Shown in pieces: positions 33,681 through 43,499 of a stretch of 64,000 nt of DNA. The notes under the pieces are model-generated. The model was not told the DNA's origin, ran no database searches, and saw only the letters and a list, made by a program, of their open reading frames with translations. This DNA comes from an uncultured delta proteobacterium (GTDB lineage: Bacteria; Desulfobacterota; BSN033; UBA1163): contig CAWHBU010000003.1 of the NCBI GenBank assembly GCA_963827685.1, forward strand, positions 320,001-384,000, in the 5' to 3' direction. The position numbers and the translations under genes are program-made. The stretch's first letter is position 1. Each line of letters begins with the position of its first letter.

Positions 33681-35006
33681 TCAAGCTCCCTTTGGAACTT
33701 CCTTTGCAATTCTGCTTCTGATCACAGGCCTTAAGACGAAGAAGGCAAGGAGCGCAGCCATGGCGTCGAATAGGGCCGTGATGTAATAAGGAACAACGAA
33801 CGACCCAGCGAAGAACGCTGCCATCAGAGCGGCGCCATATCCTGCCAGAATGGAAGACACTCCTTTAGCGGTGTATAACATGCCGTAGTTGGCGGTGGCA
33901 TTTTTGGGTCCGAATACGTCACCGGTGATGGCAGAGAACAGTGCGTATATTTCGCCCCATGAAAGGAAGACGAAGGGCAAGACGAGGACGAACAATATCG
34001 GGCTACCATGGATTTGAGTCATCAGAAAGATGAGGAACGCCTCTACCGCAAAGGCAAGGGTCATCGTATATTCCCTGCCCAGTTTGTCAGAGATTGAACC
34101 CCACATAATCCTGGAGAAGGCGTTCGTGACCCCGGCCAGCGTAGCCGTAAAGGGAACGATTGCAAAACCCCACACTTTCGTATCGAATACATTGAGAGAC
34201 TTGGCAATCTGGGATAAATTTCCTGTGGTCATCAGGCCTCCCGTGGCGACAAAAAGGAACATGATGTACAAGAGATAAAACTCAGGCCTCGTCAGCGTTT
34301 GAGACCAGGTATAGTTCACCTTTGATTGAGCAACGGCCTTGGTCACCAGTTTTGAGCGCTGTTCCCATCCAGGAGGCGCCCATCCCGCAGGAGGATGACG
34401 CAGTATCAAGGCCATGATGAAAGCGATGATGCCCTGGGCGACCCCCCATACAGCCATTGCGCCGGCCCACCCCATACTGCTTATCGTCCCCGCAATGGGT
34501 ATGATGGTTAATGCTGCTCCGCCGCCAAATCCTGCGGCAGTTAGGCCGGCTGCCAATCCCCTTCTATCAGGGAACCATTTAACAGCATTCGCTACCGTTG
34601 AAATATAGATGATTCCTGCCCCGGTCCCGGCAATGAGGCCGTAATAGATGTAAAGTTCAAAAACAGACTTAGCGACTGTTCCTCCGAGTAGCCATCCAGC
34701 AAGAATGGCAATGGAGCCTAACATCATGAGCTTGCGGATACCGAACCTATCGACGAAGTATCCTGCTACCGGCACAGGCCATGTTTCAAACAGAATGAAC
34801 ATTGAAAATATGGCCGCTATTTTAGCGTAGGGCACCCCTGTGAATTGTTGCTTCATCCCTGGCGTAAAGAGGGTGAACGAATATTGATAATTCGATATGA
34901 CGATCATCGCGATGACACCAGCGAATAGTTGGACCCACCGATTACCAGCGAGTGAACCGTAGGTTTGTTTGGCAATGTCGACTTGAGTTGTGGTTGTGTC
35001 AGGCAT
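33681..35006 (-). CDS. oxlT: Oxalate/formate antiporter family MFS transporter
   Basis: NRWVQL, SNYQYSFTLF, KWFPDRRGLAAGLTAAGFGGG, WGEIYALF and NYGMLYTAKG. Adjacent to the OOR genes. Confidence 0.9.
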   Translation of the reverse strand: MPDTTTTQVDIAKQTYGSLAGNRWVQLFAGVIAMIVISNYQYSFTLFTPGMKQQFTGVPYAKIAAIFSMFILFETWPVPVAGYFVDRFGIRKLMMLGSIAILAGWLLGGTVAKSVFELYIYYGLIAGTGAGIIYISTVANAVKWFPDRRGLAAGLTAAGFGGGAALTIIPIAGTISSMGWAGAMAVWGVAQGIIAFIMALILRHPPAGWAPPGWEQRSKLVTKAVAQSKVNYTWSQTLTRPEFYLLYIMFLFVATGGLMTTGNLSQIAKSLNVFDTKVWGFAIVPFTATLAGVTNAFSRIMWGSISDKLGREYTMTLAFAVEAFLIFLMTQIHGSPILFVLVLPFVFLSWGEIYALFSAITGDVFGPKNATANYGMLYTAKGVSSILAGYGAALMAAFFAGSFVVPYYITALFDAMAALLAFFVLRPVIRSRIAKEVPKGA

Positions 35007-35053
35007 AGTCCTCCTCCTTTCTCAAAATGCCTAGGTTAGGGCTAAACGAACTC

Positions 35054-35089
35054 GGTTCAGAGTATTCCGCCAGCGGAATACTCTGAACC
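35054..35089. terminator. Perfect 16-17 bp hairpin between oorB and oxlT
   Basis: ggttcagagtattccgc-ca-gcggaatactctgaacc. No U tract, so it may be an mRNA stabiliser or partial attenuator. Confidence 0.55.
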
Positions 35090-35103
35090 CGAATGGCAGA
35101 AAA

Positions 35104-37328
<2,225 letters not shown>

Positions 37329-37344
37329 GATTTTTCCTCCTTCA

Positions 37345-37674
37345 TTAGAAAGGTTTTTCAAGACGAACAACCCCGTCCTCAAAGTCAAGCTCTGGAACAG
37401 CACTAAGGGCATCCGCCGGACATTCGTGGATGCAGATCTGACAGCCTTTGCAAAACTTCCAGTTCCATTCCATCTTGTCTTCTTTTTCATTGTAGGACCA
37501 GCAGGAATCTGGACAGGCAATGTAACAAGTAAAACAACGGGTGCACTTCTCATGGTCAATCACCGGACGAACGATCCGCCAGTTTGAAGTGATAAAGAGT
37601 TCCTGCTGCCTCACTGGAGCAGGTGTGATCGCTCCGAAGGGAACTTCTCTATCTTTTGGGACTTTTATCGCCAT
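37345..37674 (-). CDS. 2x[4Fe-4S] delta subunit of oxalate oxidoreductase (stand-alone)
   Basis: WRIVRPVIDHEKCTRCFTCYIACPD..CKGCQICIHECP..VPELDF, with its own AAAGGAG RBS. Confidence 0.88.
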   Translation of the reverse strand: MAIKVPKDREVPFGAITPAPVRQQELFITSNWRIVRPVIDHEKCTRCFTCYIACPDSCWSYNEKEDKMEWNWKFCKGCQICIHECPADALSAVPELDFEDGVVRLEKPF

Positions 37675-37751
37675 AATCTTCTCCTTTCTCTATGCTTTCT
37701 TTAAATTCTTCTTTTCTTCCACATTCTGCATTCCTCATTCCGCATTCGGCA

Positions 37752-38390
37752 TCAGCCTCCCCAGAAGTACTCTGAACGGGGTTTACGAAATTTTTGCATT
37801 TTCACTTCATTAAAACCGCGTTCCATCGCCGCGACGTTGGTAATGATTTTTGCAATATTCTCTTTTTTCGCCATCCCCGTCACCTTGGCCATTGCCCCGA
37901 GCAGGGGTGCGGCAATGCCGGCTCCAATTCCTGCCGTGTCCACCCCTCCTTCTGAACCGGAGAAGTCAACCGTCTTTATCCCGGAGATTCCATCTGCATC
38001 CACTGTGGCAATAGCGCCTAATATATCCGCATTGGGGATAAATTTAAGCATATAATCGATCGGCCGGCTCGTATTAATAATCAAGAGGCCGCCTTCAGGC
38101 ATCCCTTTGAGCACATTGATCCCCTTAACAATGGTGGGTTCAACGATCACCACCACATCAGGGTGAGCGTTCGTATAGAGATATTTCATCTCGATCTCTT
38201 CATCACTGATTCGCGCGTATTTCCGGGTTGTAACGAGCACACGGTCGGGCAGGTCTTCATAATTGTCAAAGGCCTGGACAAATCTGCCCTCCATCTTTGC
38301 TGCCTGAGCAAAGGCATTGGCCACATCGCGGGCCTCCTTATCCATGACCACTCCTCGTGTCCAAACTGTGATTTCAGTTACTTTAGCCAT
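37752..38390 (-). CDS. Gamma subunit of oxalate oxidoreductase (stand-alone)
   Basis: ITVWTRGVVMDKEARD, NYEDLPDR and GIGAGIAAP match the N-terminal part of the recalled Moorella OorD. Confidence 0.86.
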   Translation of the reverse strand: MAKVTEITVWTRGVVMDKEARDVANAFAQAAKMEGRFVQAFDNYEDLPDRVLVTTRKYARISDEEIEMKYLYTNAHPDVVVIVEPTIVKGINVLKGMPEGGLLIINTSRPIDYMLKFIPNADILGAIATVDADGISGIKTVDFSGSEGGVDTAGIGAGIAAPLLGAMAKVTGMAKKENIAKIITNVAAMERGFNEVKMQKFRKPRSEYFWGG

Positions 38391-38455
38391 AAATAGATAC
38401 CTCCTTAAAGCAATGTTGGGCAATCAAACTGATCCATGAAATTAAACAATCGATA

Positions 38456-39193
38456 TCAGGAATGAGATTTCTCCGCCTGAAACCTATGAGCTTCCACACC
38501 TCCTTTCTTTTTCTTGAACAATACATCCTCCACCTTCTTTAGATGCCGGCGCATCGCCTGCCGAGCGCCTGTACCATTGCCATTCTTAATAGCCAACAGG
38601 ATCTCGCGATGACCCTGAAGGGATTTTTGTTTTCTCTCCTCGGTTTGAAGGTAATTTTCACGAGTCTTGCTAAGGAGGTCCAGAAGGGCAAGAAGAAGAC
38701 GCTCCAAAATCCTGTTTCGCGACATCCGGGCCAAACAGTGATGAAAATCGGAATCCGTTCGAATCGGGTTCATACCCTGGGCGACTTCTTTTTTTTGTTC
38801 CTCAAGGATCTCCTCGAGCTCAACGATTTCCTCAGGGGTTGCATTTTCTGATGCAAGTTGGGCCACTTCGGGTTCGATCATTTTGCGCAGAGAAAAGATG
38901 TCGATCAGATCATCCTTCTCATGAAAGAGGGAAGTGGCTAAAGGTTGTACCAGGGCTTCTTCATTAGAAGCGATCACGTAAGTTCCATCTCCCTGTCGTC
39001 TCTGAACAAGGTTCATTGCTTCAAGATAAAAAGTGGCCTCCCTTACAGAGGCGCGGGATACTTTGAAGGTATCGGCTAATTCTCTTTCAGTCGGAAGCTG
39101 GTCACCTTGCTTGAATTTCCCTCTTTGGATAAGATGATGGATTTGTCCTACGATATCCTCGTAGACTCGCTTTTTTTTAACCGCCTTCAACAT
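38456..39193 (-). CDS. GntR/FadR-family transcriptional regulator
   Basis: GDQLPTERELA..VSRASVREA..GDGTYV and FCD domain (DSDFH..N..H..MRRHL). Confidence 0.94.
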   Translation of the reverse strand: MLKAVKKKRVYEDIVGQIHHLIQRGKFKQGDQLPTERELADTFKVSRASVREATFYLEAMNLVQRRQGDGTYVIASNEEALVQPLATSLFHEKDDLIDIFSLRKMIEPEVAQLASENATPEEIVELEEILEEQKKEVAQGMNPIRTDSDFHHCLARMSRNRILERLLLALLDLLSKTRENYLQTEERKQKSLQGHREILLAIKNGNGTGARQAMRRHLKKVEDVLFKKKKGGVEAHRFQAEKSHS

Positions 39194-41322
39194 GGGGACA
39201 CCCCCTCCTTTTCCTGAACTTCTTTGAGTGCCTCTTCAAGATGAGAAGCAGTGACTAAAAGCTTTTTTGATTTGCTCTTCCCCGAGTCGTGGATCAATTC
39301 TCCGATGGCAAGCATGGTTGCCCTCCTCGCAATGAAGGCGATATGAGAACCCGTCATTCCATCTGTGCGTTTGGCCAACTCTGCCAGGTTTACATTGTCG
39401 GCCAAAGGCCTCTCTCTGGTGTGAACCCGAAAGATCTCTAACCGCTCTTCCTCGTCGGGGAAGGGAAAGTTAAGAATATAGTCAAGCCGTCCGGCCCGCG
39501 TTAAGGCGGGGTCGAGCAGATCTTCACGATTCGTCGCTCCGAGCACAAGGACCTGAGAAAGATCACTCAGGTTATCCAGCTCATTAAAAAACTGACTGGC
39601 CATGCGTTCGACCGCCCCGCCTTCATTTCCATAGCCACGGGTGGTCACCAGGGCATCGATTTCATCAAAAAACAGGATGCAGGGGGCCGACTGTTTCGCT
39701 TTTTTAAAGATCTGATGCAGGGCTTTTTCTGATTCTCCAAGCCACTTTGAGAAAAGGATGGGACCGCTGATGGAAATGAAATTCAGGCCCGTTTCTCCCG
39801 CCAAAGCCTTTGCCATAAGCGTCTTCCCAGTGCCCGAAGGTCCGGAGAAAAGAACCCCTCTCGGAGGGAGTACTTTACCTTCGTCAAAAAGCTCCGGAAA
39901 TTTGTGGGGCCAATCTACAATGGAGATGAGGGTTTCTTTAATCCTCTTCAATCCGCCGATATGGTGCCACTGGACCTTAGACCTCTCCGTATAAAATTCA
40001 CGCGTTGCTGTGGGTTCAATCTCACGGAGGGCCGCCAAAAAGTCCTCCATCGTGATCTCCAGATGATCCGGGTTGACGAGCATGGCATCGAGATGATTGT
40101 CGCTCTCGAGAGAAAGATATCTCCTTAAAGCCACCATTCCCGCCTCTTTGCATAAAGCCTCTAAATCCGCTCCGACAAAGGCATGGGTAATCTGGGCAAG
40201 GCGTTCCAAATCGACATCAGAGGCCAGGGGCATACGGCGGCTGTGAATCCTAAGGATGGCGTGGCGGCCTTCGGCGTTCGGAACGGAGAGGGCCATCTCA
40301 CGGTCAAAGCGACCTGGTCGTCTGAGAGCAGGGTCGATCATCTCCGGGATGTTGGTGGCCCCAATGACAATCACCTGTCCACGGGAGACCATCCCATCCA
40401 TCAAGGCCAGGAGCTGGGCAACCACTCTTTTCTCGACATCTCCTAGGACCTCTGCGCGTTTTGGGGCGATAGCATCGATTTCGTCGATAAAGATGATGCT
40501 GGGGGCATTGCGGGTTGCATCTTCAAAGATCTCCCTTAGGCGGGCTTCACTTTCACCATAAAATTTATGGATGATTTCCGGTCCGTTCACCCGAATGAAA
40601 TGGAGTTTTGTCTCGCTGGCGATGGCGCGGGCAATGAGGGTTTTCCCTGTCCCAGGAGGACCATAGAGGAGTACCCCCTTGGGTGCTTCGACTCCCAGTT
40701 TTTCAAAAACCTCCACATAGCGCAAGGGGAGCTCGACCATCTCGCGAATAAGCTTTAATTCTTTTTCAAGCCCACCGACGTCCTCGTAAGAAACATGAGA
40801 AGGTGCCTCGATGGAAATATCTGGTCTTTTTATCAGGAATTTGGTCTTCAGGTTAATCAAAACTCCCCCTGATGGAGAAGTCGCTTCGACAAGAAAAAAA
40901 CGGTCCTTCCCTGTTAAAAAGGGGACATTGATTTTATCCCCAATCAGTATAGGTAACCCCTGGAGGATTTTGGGAAACTGCTCCAGCTCGCTTCCTTCTG
41001 GGACGACGTTTGTTAAATCGAGAGGGGTAATGAGGACCGTTGTGGCGATTTTATAGGGGATTTTTTTTATTCTTACAATTTCCCCCAAGTTTACCTCGGC
41101 ATTGCTGCGAGTGATCCCGTCGATCTGAATTATTTTTTTTCCATAATACTCTGGGAAGGTTCCGGTGATCCTGGCGACTGTTTTTTTCTCTCCACTCATC
41201 TCGATCAGATCGCCGAGGACACCTCCTAACGCCTTAATATCCTCTGGATCGAGGCGCGCCAATCCCTTTCCGACATCTTCAGCCAAGGTTTCAGCCACCT
41301 TTAATTCAATAAAACCGCCCAC
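39187..41322 (-). CDS. CDC48/p97/VAT-family double-ring AAA+ ATPase
   Basis: N domain (EDVGKGLARLDP..DGITRSNA). D1: GPPGTGKT, KFYGESE, DEID, RRPGRFD. D2: GPSGTGKT, KWLGESE, DEID, RAGRLD. Probable GTG start at 41322. Confidence 0.93.
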   Translation of the reverse strand: MGGFIELKVAETLAEDVGKGLARLDPEDIKALGGVLGDLIEMSGEKKTVARITGTFPEYYGKKIIQIDGITRSNAEVNLGEIVRIKKIPYKIATTVLITPLDLTNVVPEGSELEQFPKILQGLPILIGDKINVPFLTGKDRFFLVEATSPSGGVLINLKTKFLIKRPDISIEAPSHVSYEDVGGLEKELKLIREMVELPLRYVEVFEKLGVEAPKGVLLYGPPGTGKTLIARAIASETKLHFIRVNGPEIIHKFYGESEARLREIFEDATRNAPSIIFIDEIDAIAPKRAEVLGDVEKRVVAQLLALMDGMVSRGQVIVIGATNIPEMIDPALRRPGRFDREMALSVPNAEGRHAILRIHSRRMPLASDVDLERLAQITHAFVGADLEALCKEAGMVALRRYLSLESDNHLDAMLVNPDHLEITMEDFLAALREIEPTATREFYTERSKVQWHHIGGLKRIKETLISIVDWPHKFPELFDEGKVLPPRGVLFSGPSGTGKTLMAKALAGETGLNFISISGPILFSKWLGESEKALHQIFKKAKQSAPCILFFDEIDALVTTRGYGNEGGAVERMASQFFNELDNLSDLSQVLVLGATNREDLLDPALTRAGRLDYILNFPFPDEEERLEIFRVHTRERPLADNVNLAELAKRTDGMTGSHIAFIARRATMLAIGELIHDSGKSKSKKLLVTASHLEEALKEVQEKEGVSPC

Positions 41323-41347
41323 AGAAAATGCTTCTCCCTCGATGAGC

Positions 41348-41405
41348 AAATTGGTATAAAGATCAGACCAATTTCATATTAGAATATTTCTGCCCATTCT
41401 GTCAA
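41348..41405 (-). promoter_or_regulatory. Sigma70 promoter with FadR-type palindromic operator for the cdc48-gntR-oor operon
   Basis: TTGACA(41405-41400)-N18-TAATAT(41381-41376), followed directly by AAATTGGT-ctgatctttat-ACCAATTT. Confidence 0.7.
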
Positions 41406-41547: not shown

Positions 41548-42777
41548 TCATTCATAGCGAAGAGCTTCGATGGGGTTGAGCAGAGAGGCTTTCCGTGCCG
41601 GATAGAATCCAAAAAATACGCCTACCGACCCAGAAAAGAGAAAAGCCAAAAGGACAGCTTCGACTGAAAAGAGGGTCGGCCATTGGGTAAAACTGGATAA
41701 GATGAGGGTCCCTGCCACTCCAATCCCAATTCCCACTGTTCCCCCAATCAGACTGAGAACCAAAGATTCAATGAGGAATTGAAGGAGGATATCCCGTCCC
41801 TTTGCACCGACGGCGATTCGAATGCCAATCTCTCTTGTTCTCTCCGTGACGGAGACAAGCATAATGTTCATAATCCCGATACCCCCGACAATCAAAGAGA
41901 TGGAAGCAATGGCACCCAGGAGAAGGGACATAACATTCGCTGATTGCTCAGCGGTCGACATAATCTCTGTGAGATTCCGCACCGTAAAGTCATTATCCTG
42001 CTTCGGTTGAATATGATGCCTCTGTCGAAGAAGATCATTAATTTGATTCTCCACATCCTTCATCACCTCCGGTTGCGTCGCTTGCACCATGATCACTCTC
42101 ACCATCCCCGGGAATTGCATTCCAAAGAGTTTTTTTTGGGCCGCGGTCAAGGGGACGATGATCGTATCGTCCTGATCCTGCCCCTGAGTCGATTGTCCCT
42201 TCGGAGCAAGTACTCCGATCACGGTGAAAGGAACCATCTTAATACGAATGACTTGGCCAGTCGGATCGATCCCTCCAAAGAGATTATCTACCACGGTCTG
42301 TCCAAGAAGACAGACCTTTGTCGCTCCGTCTATATCCTGTTGTGTAAATGGGCGACCCGAAGAAAGGGACCAGTCTCTGATTTCGAGGGCCTCGGGGGTT
42401 GTTCCGTTAACAATGGTCGACCAGTTCTGGTTCCCGAAGACTACCTGTGCTCCCCCGCCGAGGTAGGGCGCTACATACTTGACCGCTGGAATCTCGTTTA
42501 GGATTGCTTTGGCATCATCCACTCTTAATGTTGGAACTGTTCCTGATCCGAACCGAAGTCCGCCGCTTGTTGAGCTCCCTGAGAGGACGATTAGGAGGTT
42601 CGATCCCATACTGGCAATCTGCTCGGCGATTCGCTTCTTTGCCCCTGAGCCCACAGCAATCATAGCAATCACCGCACCCACACCGATAATGATCCCCAAC
42701 ATGGTCAGGGCCGAGCGCATCTTATTGACCGTGAGCGCCCTTAGGGCAATCCGAAGGCTTGCGAGAAGACGTGTCAT
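41548..42777 (-). CDS. MacB/FtsX-like ABC permease
   Basis: RSALTMLGIIIGVGAV and GGIGIMNIMLVSVTERTREIGIR. Confidence 0.93.
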   Translation of the reverse strand: MTRLLASLRIALRALTVNKMRSALTMLGIIIGVGAVIAMIAVGSGAKKRIAEQIASMGSNLLIVLSGSSTSGGLRFGSGTVPTLRVDDAKAILNEIPAVKYVAPYLGGGAQVVFGNQNWSTIVNGTTPEALEIRDWSLSSGRPFTQQDIDGATKVCLLGQTVVDNLFGGIDPTGQVIRIKMVPFTVIGVLAPKGQSTQGQDQDDTIIVPLTAAQKKLFGMQFPGMVRVIMVQATQPEVMKDVENQINDLLRQRHHIQPKQDNDFTVRNLTEIMSTAEQSANVMSLLLGAIASISLIVGGIGIMNIMLVSVTERTREIGIRIAVGAKGRDILLQFLIESLVLSLIGGTVGIGIGVAGTLILSSFTQWPTLFSVEAVLLAFLFSGSVGVFFGFYPARKASLLNPIEALRYE

Positions 42778-43499
42778 TTCCCTCCCATCCTCCCTCCTGC
42801 AATGGTAGGCGCCGAATTCTTGCGATCATCAACGATTTTTCCGTCCCTGAAGAGAATATCCCTTTTGGCAAAGGAGGCAATATCCGGCTCGTGAGTGATC
42901 ATGATGATGGTAATTCCCATCTCTCGATTGAGGCGCTGAAAGATACCCATGATCTCTTCACTTGTCTTGGAATCAAGATTGCCCGTGGGTTCATCCGCTA
43001 AGAGGATGGAAGGCTGGTTGACTAAGGCCCGGGCGATGGCTACCCGTTGCTGTTCACCTCCAGAAAGTTGGCTGGGATGATGATGCTCCCTTCCCTTTAA
43101 GCCCACCTCAGAAAGAGCTTTTTGTGCCATCTCCTTCCTTTTGGAAGTTTGAGTTCCTGCGTAGGTCAGAGGCAGCTCGACATTCTCTAAGGCCGAAGTC
43201 CTAGACAAAAGGTTAAACCCCTGAAAGACGAAGCCGATCTTTCGATTCCGAATCTCCGCCAACTCATCCCTCGAAAGGTGTTCTCCATTAATGCCTTCCA
43301 AAAGATATTGCCCGCTCGTCGGTCGATCCAGGAAACCTATAATATTCATGAAGGTTGACTTCCCAGAGCCTGAAGCTCCCATGATGGCCACAAATTCACC
43401 TCGTTCAACCAACAGAGAAACACTCCGAAGGGCTTGAACTTCCACCTCGCCCAAGCTATAAACCTTCACCAAATCTTGAACCTGAATTAATGAACCCAT
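42774..43499 (-). CDS. MacB/LolD-like ABC ATPase
   Basis: [17 protein letters not shown] and ADEPTGNLD. Confidence 0.94.

Follow-up and report, generated by a model that had tools for sequence, protein, structure and literature searches.

Oxalate:ferredoxin oxidoreductase (OOR) oxidizes oxalate to 2 CO2 independently of coenzyme A, reduces ferredoxin in the process, and contains thiamine pyrophosphate (TPP) as well as three [4Fe-4S] clusters. Several unrelated enzymes are known to be assisted by AAA+ activases encoded beside them (Rubisco activase, CbbX, CbbQ/O, and NorQ/D), all of which are single-ring AAA+ or MoxR proteins; to our knowledge, none of these is a Cdc48/p97-type unfoldase with the N-D1-D2 arrangement, and none serves a 2-oxoacid:ferredoxin oxidoreductase (OFOR). 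Extraction and unfolding of proteins is the textbook activity of the Cdc48 family, and archaeal Cdc48 feeds its substrates to the 20S proteasome, which requires both alpha and beta subunits and to which partners dock through a C-terminal hydrophobic-Tyr-X (HbYX) motif. Here, we analyze a 64,000-nucleotide stretch of an uncultured delta proteobacterium (GCA_963827685.1, contig CAWHBU010000003.1, positions 320,001 to 384,000; hereafter, the window), in which a cdc48 gene stands at the head of a likely operon together with genes for a GntR-type regulator (gntR), the OOR subunits (oorG, oorD, oorA, and oorB), and an oxalate/formate antiporter (oxlT).

The OOR of the window belongs to the same enzyme family as that of Moorella thermoacetica (PDB 5C4I/5EXD/5EXE). 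With VAT (the VCP-like ATPase of Thermoplasma acidophilum) and archaeal Cdc48, the Cdc48 of the window shares an N domain (double-psi barrel and beta-clam) and two AAA rings that each have an aromatic pore loop, whereas it differs from them in being bacterial, in lacking an HbYX-type C-terminus, in originating from a genome without a 20S pair, and in that its gene is tied to one metabolic enzyme instead of being a gene for a general unfoldase. Another bacterial relative with two rings is Cpa, which is described by Ziemski et al. (2018, PMC6017811) as an interactor of the bacterial 20S proteasome and as a separate cluster confined to Actinobacteria. In contrast to Cpa, the Cdc48 of the window belongs to the non-actinobacterial, archaeal-like homologs, which in passages of the same paper are described as sporadic, grouped with archaeal proteins, and attributed to horizontal transfer, and for which no function is given there.

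Association of Cdc48 with OOR across genomes

The link between Cdc48 and OOR is real, broad, and specific. An OorA alignment was scanned against one genome per species (185,579 species), and for the best 80 of the 232 relatives up to 10 kb of flanking sequence was inspected, with neighbors identified by tblastn using the proteins of the window. The initial annotation had proposed, from the single locus, that Cdc48 and OOR are functionally connected, had suggested inspecting the neighborhoods of oor homologs, and had named a lack of cdc48 near the oor genes of other genomes as a refutation. The link withstood this test: 68 of the 80 loci carry cdc48 directly upstream of the first OOR gene and in the same orientation. 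At least 3.2 kb of upstream sequence is available for 63 of these 68, while 5 are shorter at a contig end, and in L070, L082, L117, and L145 a contig end cuts cdc48 itself. Among the other loci, 6 have upstream sequence too short to judge, 2 carry Cdc48 elsewhere (6 kb downstream in L097 and beside a second, divergent OOR-like operon in L142), and 4 with sufficient flank have no Cdc48 (L098, Myxococcales; L103, Betaproteobacteria; L129 and L141, Acidobacteriota). Judging by their record titles, the positive loci come from Thermodesulfobacteriota, Nitrospirota, Acidobacteriota, NC10/Methylomirabilia, and Deferrimicrobiaceae as well as Anaeromyxobacter, Pseudomonadota, Bacillota, and Atribacterota.

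Two further samples were built from whole phyla. Within 401 genomes of Thermodesulfobacteriota, the phylum of the window, OorA scored above the cut-off in 10, and Cdc48 was adjacent in 10 of 10; 8 of the ten have it on the same contig, 1-2 kb upstream, and both G405, where a contig break between oorG and oorD splits the operon, and G305 (identical with L070), where the contig ends inside cdc48, were counted as adjacent. In the reverse direction, this sample yielded 60 Cdc48-family matches (E <= 1e-120) in 50 genomes, 49 of them away from OOR, and the Cdc48 family is therefore wider than the OOR link. The third sample comprised 401 genomes of the Bacillota-type phylum that holds the genome of L111. 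OorA exceeded the cut-off in 30 of these, and cdc48 lies directly upstream of oorG in 27 of the 29 other loci (the 30th being L111 itself); the exceptions are L213, where a gntR-like gene is followed by the contig end, and L215, which is cut inside oorA. One member of this sample, G505, encodes an OorA that is identical at 391 of 394 positions to chain A of PDB 5C4I, the crystallised M. thermoacetica enzyme, and its genes are ordered gntR-like gene, cdc48, oor genes, and oxlT, with a Cdc48 that is 51% identical to that of the window. Thus, the model organism of OOR research, or a very near relative of it, shares the layout with cdc48.

The genes occur in two orders, cdc48-gntR-oor as in the window and gntR-cdc48-oor as in the Moorella-type locus of G505. 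The regulator gene follows cdc48 in the former and precedes it in the latter, with cdc48 staying beside oorG, and in L107 and L210-L212 cdc48 and the oor genes occur without any GntR match within approximately 5 kb. The link is one of Cdc48 to OOR, not to the regulator. Moreover, the other OFOR loci in the genome of the window have no Cdc48 nearby, and the OOR-linked gene is the only Cdc48-family match in 4 of 5 genomes tested (L107, L111, L121, and L130), with L112 (NC10) having a second one.

Several loci depart from the common layout in other respects. In L142 (654-6988) and L097 (13152-19295), a second, divergent OFOR operon with an OorA-like protein of 39% (L142) or 28% (L097) identity adjoins the OOR genes, and the Cdc48 genes of these two loci adjoin this second operon and do not stand directly before oorG. 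In the Acidobacteriota loci L120-L146, additional coding sequence separates oorG from oorD (approximately 1.6 kb) and oorB from oxlT (approximately 2.3 kb); these operons still place cdc48 directly before oorG. Furthermore, stops or frameshifts were noted in cdc48, gntR, oorA, or oorB of L055/L096 (G002), L054/L071 (G019), L056 (G027), and L057 (the second copy in G008). A pseudogene reading, considered for the stops in cdc48 and gntR of G002 and G027, was rejected, since oorA and oorB are also split in G002, a long-read metagenome-assembled genome (MAG). Assembly error is more likely than gene decay, because several genes of one operon are hit together and two of the records come from a long-read MAG series.

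A clade of OOR-linked Cdc48 proteins and its relatives

A FastTree phylogeny was calculated for 105 full-length Cdc48 proteins, consisting of 65 OOR-adjacent ones, those of L097 and L142, and 38 others, most of which stem from the Thermodesulfobacteriota sample. The 65 OOR-adjacent proteins together with those of L097 and L142 form one clade (SH-like support of 100, branch length 0.22), which includes none of the 38 other full-length Cdc48s. Mapped onto this tree, the genomic context changes 3 times, compared to 32 times when the labels are shuffled. A second tree (IQ-TREE in its 'quick' setting, LG+G4, 59 rows), to which ten Bacillota-type sequences were added and for which L097 and L142 had been assigned to the OOR group beforehand owing to their location in OOR loci, placed the 35 Cdc48s of OOR loci on one side of a branch with an SH-aLRT of 99. 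Across 40 loci, the identity between any two Cdc48s is correlated with the identity between the corresponding OOR subunits (r = 0.90-0.95 for OorA, OorB, OorG, and OorD), and the OOR subunits correlate among themselves at r = 0.956-0.970.

The Cdc48 of the window matches TIGR01243 with 821.6 bits (821.9 in the whole-genome search; cut-off 802.65). Its N-terminal part comprises PF02359 (CDC48_N; residues 15-97, 71.5 bits, cut-off 35.1) and PF02933 (CDC48_2; residues 119-173, 22.6 bits, cut-off 22.4), followed by two PF00004 (AAA) and two AAA_lid_3 stretches. The best PDB match is VAT of Thermoplasma (5g4g), with 824.5 bits over residues 15-645, compared to approximately 570 bits for eukaryotic p97/Cdc48. 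The initial annotation had credited both ATPase rings with intact motor motifs and had described the C-terminus as devoid of HbYX, and the translation bears out both statements: Walker A (GPPGTGKT and GPSGTGKT), Walker B (FIDEID and FFDEID), aromatic pore loops (KFYGESE and KWLGESE), and Arg fingers (RRPGRFD and TRAGRLD) are found in the two rings, and the protein ends in GVSPC. Most of these motifs are conserved, with GPPGTGKT, KfYGESE, the Asp and Glu of the D1 Walker B motif, RRPGRFDRE, GPSGTGKT, and SKWlGESE being kept in at least 90% of the OOR clade, and the Glu of the D2 Walker B motif as well as parts of the D2 Arg-finger motif in 60-90%. The C-terminal tails are variable, and a penultimate Tyr was found in 0 of 67 OOR-clade proteins. 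A 20S alpha and beta pair was not found in the genome of the window, which has a single PF00227 gene. Because the motor motifs are kept and both an HbYX tail and a 20S alpha and beta pair are missing, we read this Cdc48, on the strength of its sequence, as a putative threading-competent, protease-independent unfoldase.

The same genome encodes a second Cdc48 (G000:C3:674404-676503; locus L058:9989-12121), which is 50% identical to the first and has the same architecture. Like the first, it lies within the gene cluster of a single client system, and it belongs to a separate clade. Instead of OOR genes, its neighbors are two GvpF/L genes, one of them with a fused J domain, GvpG, a GvpN-like AAA_5 protein, two Hsp20s, an ArsA-like ATPase, and a response regulator. 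Clustering of neighbors revealed such a gas-vesicle context, GvpG included, for clades A and C, which account for 22 of the 38 loci with a non-OOR Cdc48; no consistent neighbors were found for the remaining non-OOR clades, including clade D. Bacterial Cdc48 clades thus tend to sit in the gene cluster of one client system each, which lends credibility to a dedicated role of the OOR-linked clade.

Possible role of the OOR-linked Cdc48

According to the initial annotation, Cdc48 would be a dedicated maturase or reactivase of the TPP/Fe-S enzyme. The specific link withstood the comparison, as Cdc48 is tied to OOR by adjacency and by its single clade, whereas an obligatory maturase is at odds with 4 OOR-bearing genomes in which no Cdc48 match was found. 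The explanation that we favor, and that we put forward tentatively, is that the window contains a seven-gene, oxalate-inducible operon whose Cdc48 is an OOR-dedicated, protease-independent unfoldase for conditional repair or reactivation. A local GntR/FCD repressor would sit on an inverted repeat covering the cdc48 transcription start and would be released from it, presumably by oxalate or a related acid, upon which Cdc48, more repressor, the four-subunit OOR, and the oxalate/formate antiporter would be made together. Cdc48, as a putatively hexameric VAT-type unfoldase, would recognize an OOR subunit through its N domain and pull it with the aromatic pore loops of D1 and D2 at the expense of ATP. 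In this way, inactive OOR could be remodelled or dismantled such that the enzyme re-forms. Inactivity might arise because TPP is caught in a dead-end adduct, an Fe-S cluster is damaged, or a subunit is mis-assembled; OOR reportedly undergoes suicide inactivation by pyruvate, going by the title of a paper in a reference list. OOR as the client, the co-transcription, the binding of the repressor, and the kind of remodelling are what we infer from sequence comparisons. The proposed logic would be analogous to that of the AAA+ activases, in which a co-encoded, ATP-driven remodeller frees one enzyme from dead-end states; in contrast to these, the Cdc48 of the window combines two AAA rings with a Cdc48 N domain, and the likeness concerns the possible mode of action, not membership. 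Even more tentatively, this may be extended to a whole bacterial clade of VAT-type Cdc48 proteins that has OOR as its single dedicated client and acts as its protease-free, ATP-driven reactivase.

Several points weigh against this explanation. No Cdc48 match at E <= 1e-80 was found in the OOR-bearing genomes of L098, L099, L129, and L141, so that OOR apparently does not depend on Cdc48, provided that these MAGs are complete, and in the genome of L103, Cdc48 lies on another contig with no OOR genes in the 5.5 kb downstream of it. The loci behind the adjacency figures are species representatives that are related to each other (26 are Acidobacteriota), and the figures are to be taken as counts, not as independent trials. 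Both trees were calculated by fast methods, with non-OOR Cdc48s from one phylum and no archaeal outgroup. Co-divergence could result from joint horizontal transfer without physical interaction, and a palindrome between gntR and oorG, described below, may constitute another point of control, which could act as an operator or as an RNA hairpin. Neutral in this respect is a complex prediction for the Cdc48 N domain (residues 1-176 counted from the GTG start) with OorA, OorG, and OorD, which was based on 25-28-row alignments, included neither controls nor OorB, and returned a score of 0.00.

Regarding the features by which Cdc48 might recognize OOR, the termini of OorG, OorD, OorA, and OorB, a few of which are misextended through stops, were compared between 5 Cdc48-less and 12 Cdc48-linked loci and revealed no consistent difference; a candidate client 'handle' on the OOR termini was rejected for this reason. 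Substitution of Cdc48 by a stand-alone N domain was likewise rejected, since the 10 open reading frames upstream of oorG in Cdc48-less loci carry no CDC48_N; 7 of these 10 match no Pfam family.

The foremost alternative to conditional repair is a biogenesis chaperone, that is, an obligatory maturase required once, during assembly of the dimer of heterotetramers or during loading with TPP and the three [4Fe-4S] clusters, which would keep a subunit bound or unfolded until cofactor insertion is complete. It draws on the same linkage, clade, and co-divergence data, and it would agree with the first position of cdc48 in the operon, by which the chaperone is made before its client. However, the Pfam scan revealed no cofactor-handling domain in Cdc48, and conditional repair is preferred over an obligatory maturase because 4 OOR genomes lack a Cdc48 match, because the OOR termini are alike in both groups of loci, because the other OFORs of the genome, which have the same cofactors, are without a Cdc48 neighbor, and because of the reported suicide inactivation by pyruvate. 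We therefore consider an obligatory maturase unlikely.

Somewhat less likely still is a disposal route in which Cdc48 unfolds damaged OOR and passes it on to a housekeeping protease (FtsH, Lon, ClpP, or HslV). Such a route would correspond to the textbook activity of the family, and the intact pore loops as well as VAT being the closest solved relative fit well with it. It is opposed by the 67 C-termini, among which neither HbYX nor any other conserved tail is found, by the missing 20S alpha and beta pair in the genome of the window, and by the OOR loci themselves, in which no conserved protease gene was found.

That there is no specific partnership at all, with a general stress unfoldase merely travelling with the oxalate module by horizontal transfer, appears improbable to us. 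The patchy taxonomic spread of the oxalate module would be in line with this view, as would the sporadic and probably archaeal-derived nature of non-actinobacterial Cdc48s in the portion of Ziemski et al. (2018, PMC6017811) that deals with them, but the adjacency survives two gene orders and at least nine phylum-level labels, the clade is confined to OOR loci in the samples examined, and a general unfoldase is hard to reconcile with the OOR-linked gene being the only Cdc48-family match in 4 of the 5 genomes tested. Least probable of all is a regulatory role with an indirect link to OOR, in which the target of Cdc48 would be a signalling protein such as the GntR repressor, to be removed from DNA, for instance: cdc48 and gntR are translationally coupled in the window (ATGTTGA) and are neighbors in most loci, but the position of gntR shifts relative to cdc48, the aforementioned four loci combine cdc48 and oor genes without a nearby GntR match, and L129 and L141 have gntR and oor genes without cdc48.

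A search of the full-text literature, to which the original OOR papers and supplements were external, found no publication on a link between Cdc48 and OOR, and it yielded nothing usable on the heterologous expression or the inactivation of OOR. Conditional repair of OOR, if true, would for the first time assign a defined function to the 'sporadic' Cdc48s from outside Actinobacteria. It would also provide a p97-type motor that services a TPP/Fe-S enzyme, of which none is known so far, and it would extend the repertoire of AAA+ 'enzyme activases' to p97-type motors. Together with the gas-vesicle clade, it would indicate that bacteria use Cdc48 paralogs as client-specific machines. In addition, it would offer a simple bacterial system for studying the choice of clients by the Cdc48 N domain without ubiquitin-like tags and would be relevant to the heterologous use of OOR in oxalate removal and in CO2/electro-enzymatic work. 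In any case, an orphan bacterial Cdc48 becomes part of a directly testable pair with a structurally solved enzyme, in an arrangement that the model organism or a near relative shares.

Layout and proposed control of the operon

The initial annotation had described a minus-strand series of promoter and operator, cdc48, gntR, oorG-oorD-oorA-oorB, and oxlT, and each of these was recovered at the position assigned to it. The cdc48 gene was listed with a TTG start (39187-41349); this codon lies inside an inverted repeat and has no ribosome binding site (RBS), whereas a GTG at 41322 lies 11 nt behind GAGGGAG and is likely the true start (39187-41322, 711 aa). The 7-nt overlap ATGTTGA between cdc48 and gntR is as annotated, with the ATG of gntR (38456-39193) located inside ...CCATGTTGA, where cdc48 ends; the final Cys of Cdc48 in the near kin of the window is a product of this overlap. 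GntR is a FadR-subfamily regulator with a GntR helix-turn-helix (PF00392, 70.9 bits) and an FCD domain (PF07729, 107.9 bits). It reaches no NCBIfam equivalog, the top model being the NanR subfamily (148.5 bits compared to a cut-off of 260).

As likewise annotated, 65 nt separate the stop of gntR from oorG (37752-38390), whose ATG at 38390 is preceded by AAGGAGG. OorG is the domain-III subunit and corresponds to the N-terminal two thirds of the Moorella delta subunit (NF045790, 244.8 bits, cut-off 230, model positions 11-209), and OorD (37345-37674), a ferredoxin-like subunit for two [4Fe-4S] clusters, matches model positions 227-316 of the same family with 109.5 bits; its eight Cys are invariant in 28 sequences. 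In contrast to the Moorella enzyme, delta thus consists of two separate proteins, OorG and OorD, whose genes lie 77 nt apart, and because oorD has its own RBS after this spacer, the split is natural and does not result from a frameshift. The alpha subunit OorA (36135-37328) matches NF045791 with 580.2 bits (cut-off 500) and chain A of PDB 5c4i with 514.8 bits. All 28 OorA sequences compared share R31, R109, and D112 (numbered on the protein of the window), which carry the same numbers in 5C4I chain A; we take them to be the active-site and switch-loop residues of the Moorella enzyme. The TPP-binding beta subunit OorB (35104-36105) contains the Pfam domain TPP_enzyme_C and scores 566.5 bits against NF045792, slightly below the cut-off of 590. 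The last gene, oxlT (33681-35006), encodes a transporter of the major facilitator superfamily of the oxalate/formate antiporter type (TIGR04259, 370.9 bits, cut-off 335).

A motif scan places a sigma-70-like promoter, TTGACA-18-TAATAT, 5' of cdc48 (41376-41405, minus strand). It is the best of 11 promoter-like matches in the region and agrees with the consensus at 10 of 12 positions (7.9 +/- 2.2 matches in shuffled sequences), and its -35 hexamer TTGACA recurs upstream of cdc48 in the relatives compared. Between the -10 hexamer and the start codon of cdc48 lies the inverted repeat AAATTGGT-N11-ACCAATTT (41348-41374, minus strand), a putative GntR/FCD operator. Its 21-nt core TTGGTCTGATCTTTATACCAA is identical upstream of cdc48 in L048-L051, L068, and L069, whose Cdc48s are 77-85% identical to that of the window, and the inner GGTCTGA(T/C)C is present in 12 of 66 upstream regions. 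Because the repeat covers the transcription start and is conserved more than the coding sequence, it looks like a repressor operator, presumably bound by the FCD-type GntR. A wider regulon was considered and rejected, as no second copy of the core exists in the 5.2-Mb genome even when 3 mismatches are allowed, which leaves the repeat a candidate for a local operator.

No promoter-like match was found in the 65-nt gap between gntR and oorG. The initial annotation had seen no obvious terminator before oorB, which holds for this gap, where none was found, but is to be qualified by weak 5-7-bp matches inside coding sequence; a strong hairpin occurs only after oorB. Since one strong promoter with a conserved operator precedes cdc48 and the gap has no promoter-like match, co-induction of cdc48 with the oor genes is plausible, and co-transcription is likely, judging from this arrangement. 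The hairpin between oorB and oxlT (35089-35054, minus strand), which is the only strong one in the region, has a perfect 16-bp stem and a 4-nt loop without a T-run; it may act as an attenuator or as an mRNA-stabilising element that sets the ratio of enzyme to transporter.

In the gntR-oorG gap of close relatives (L068, L069, L076, L077, L084-L087, L092, and L095), the palindrome GGTCAG-N5-12-CTGATCAA is intact approximately 33 nt before oorG, with L084-L086 having the symmetric variant CATCAG-TCTGA-CTGATG. A copy of CTGATCAA with no more than 1 mismatch lies at most 120 nt from oorG in 14 of 78 loci. Comparison with these relatives identified a remnant of the palindrome (GGATCAG...) in the window (38415-38435, minus strand), the 3' arm of which is degraded or lost.

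Finally, the G+C content over the oor genes (34001-38000) is 0.505-0.512, compared to 0.44-0.48 in most of the window; this increase is mild and could reflect either gene content or an earlier transfer of the module. A MacB-type ABC exporter pair (41548-43499) is encoded directly upstream of the operon, with a permease at 41548-42777 and an ATPase at 42774-43499. This pair also flanks the operon in L049, L050, and L051, and it is found on the other side or inverted in L047, L048, L053, and L055. As its position varies among relatives, the oxalate module moves relative to its flanks.

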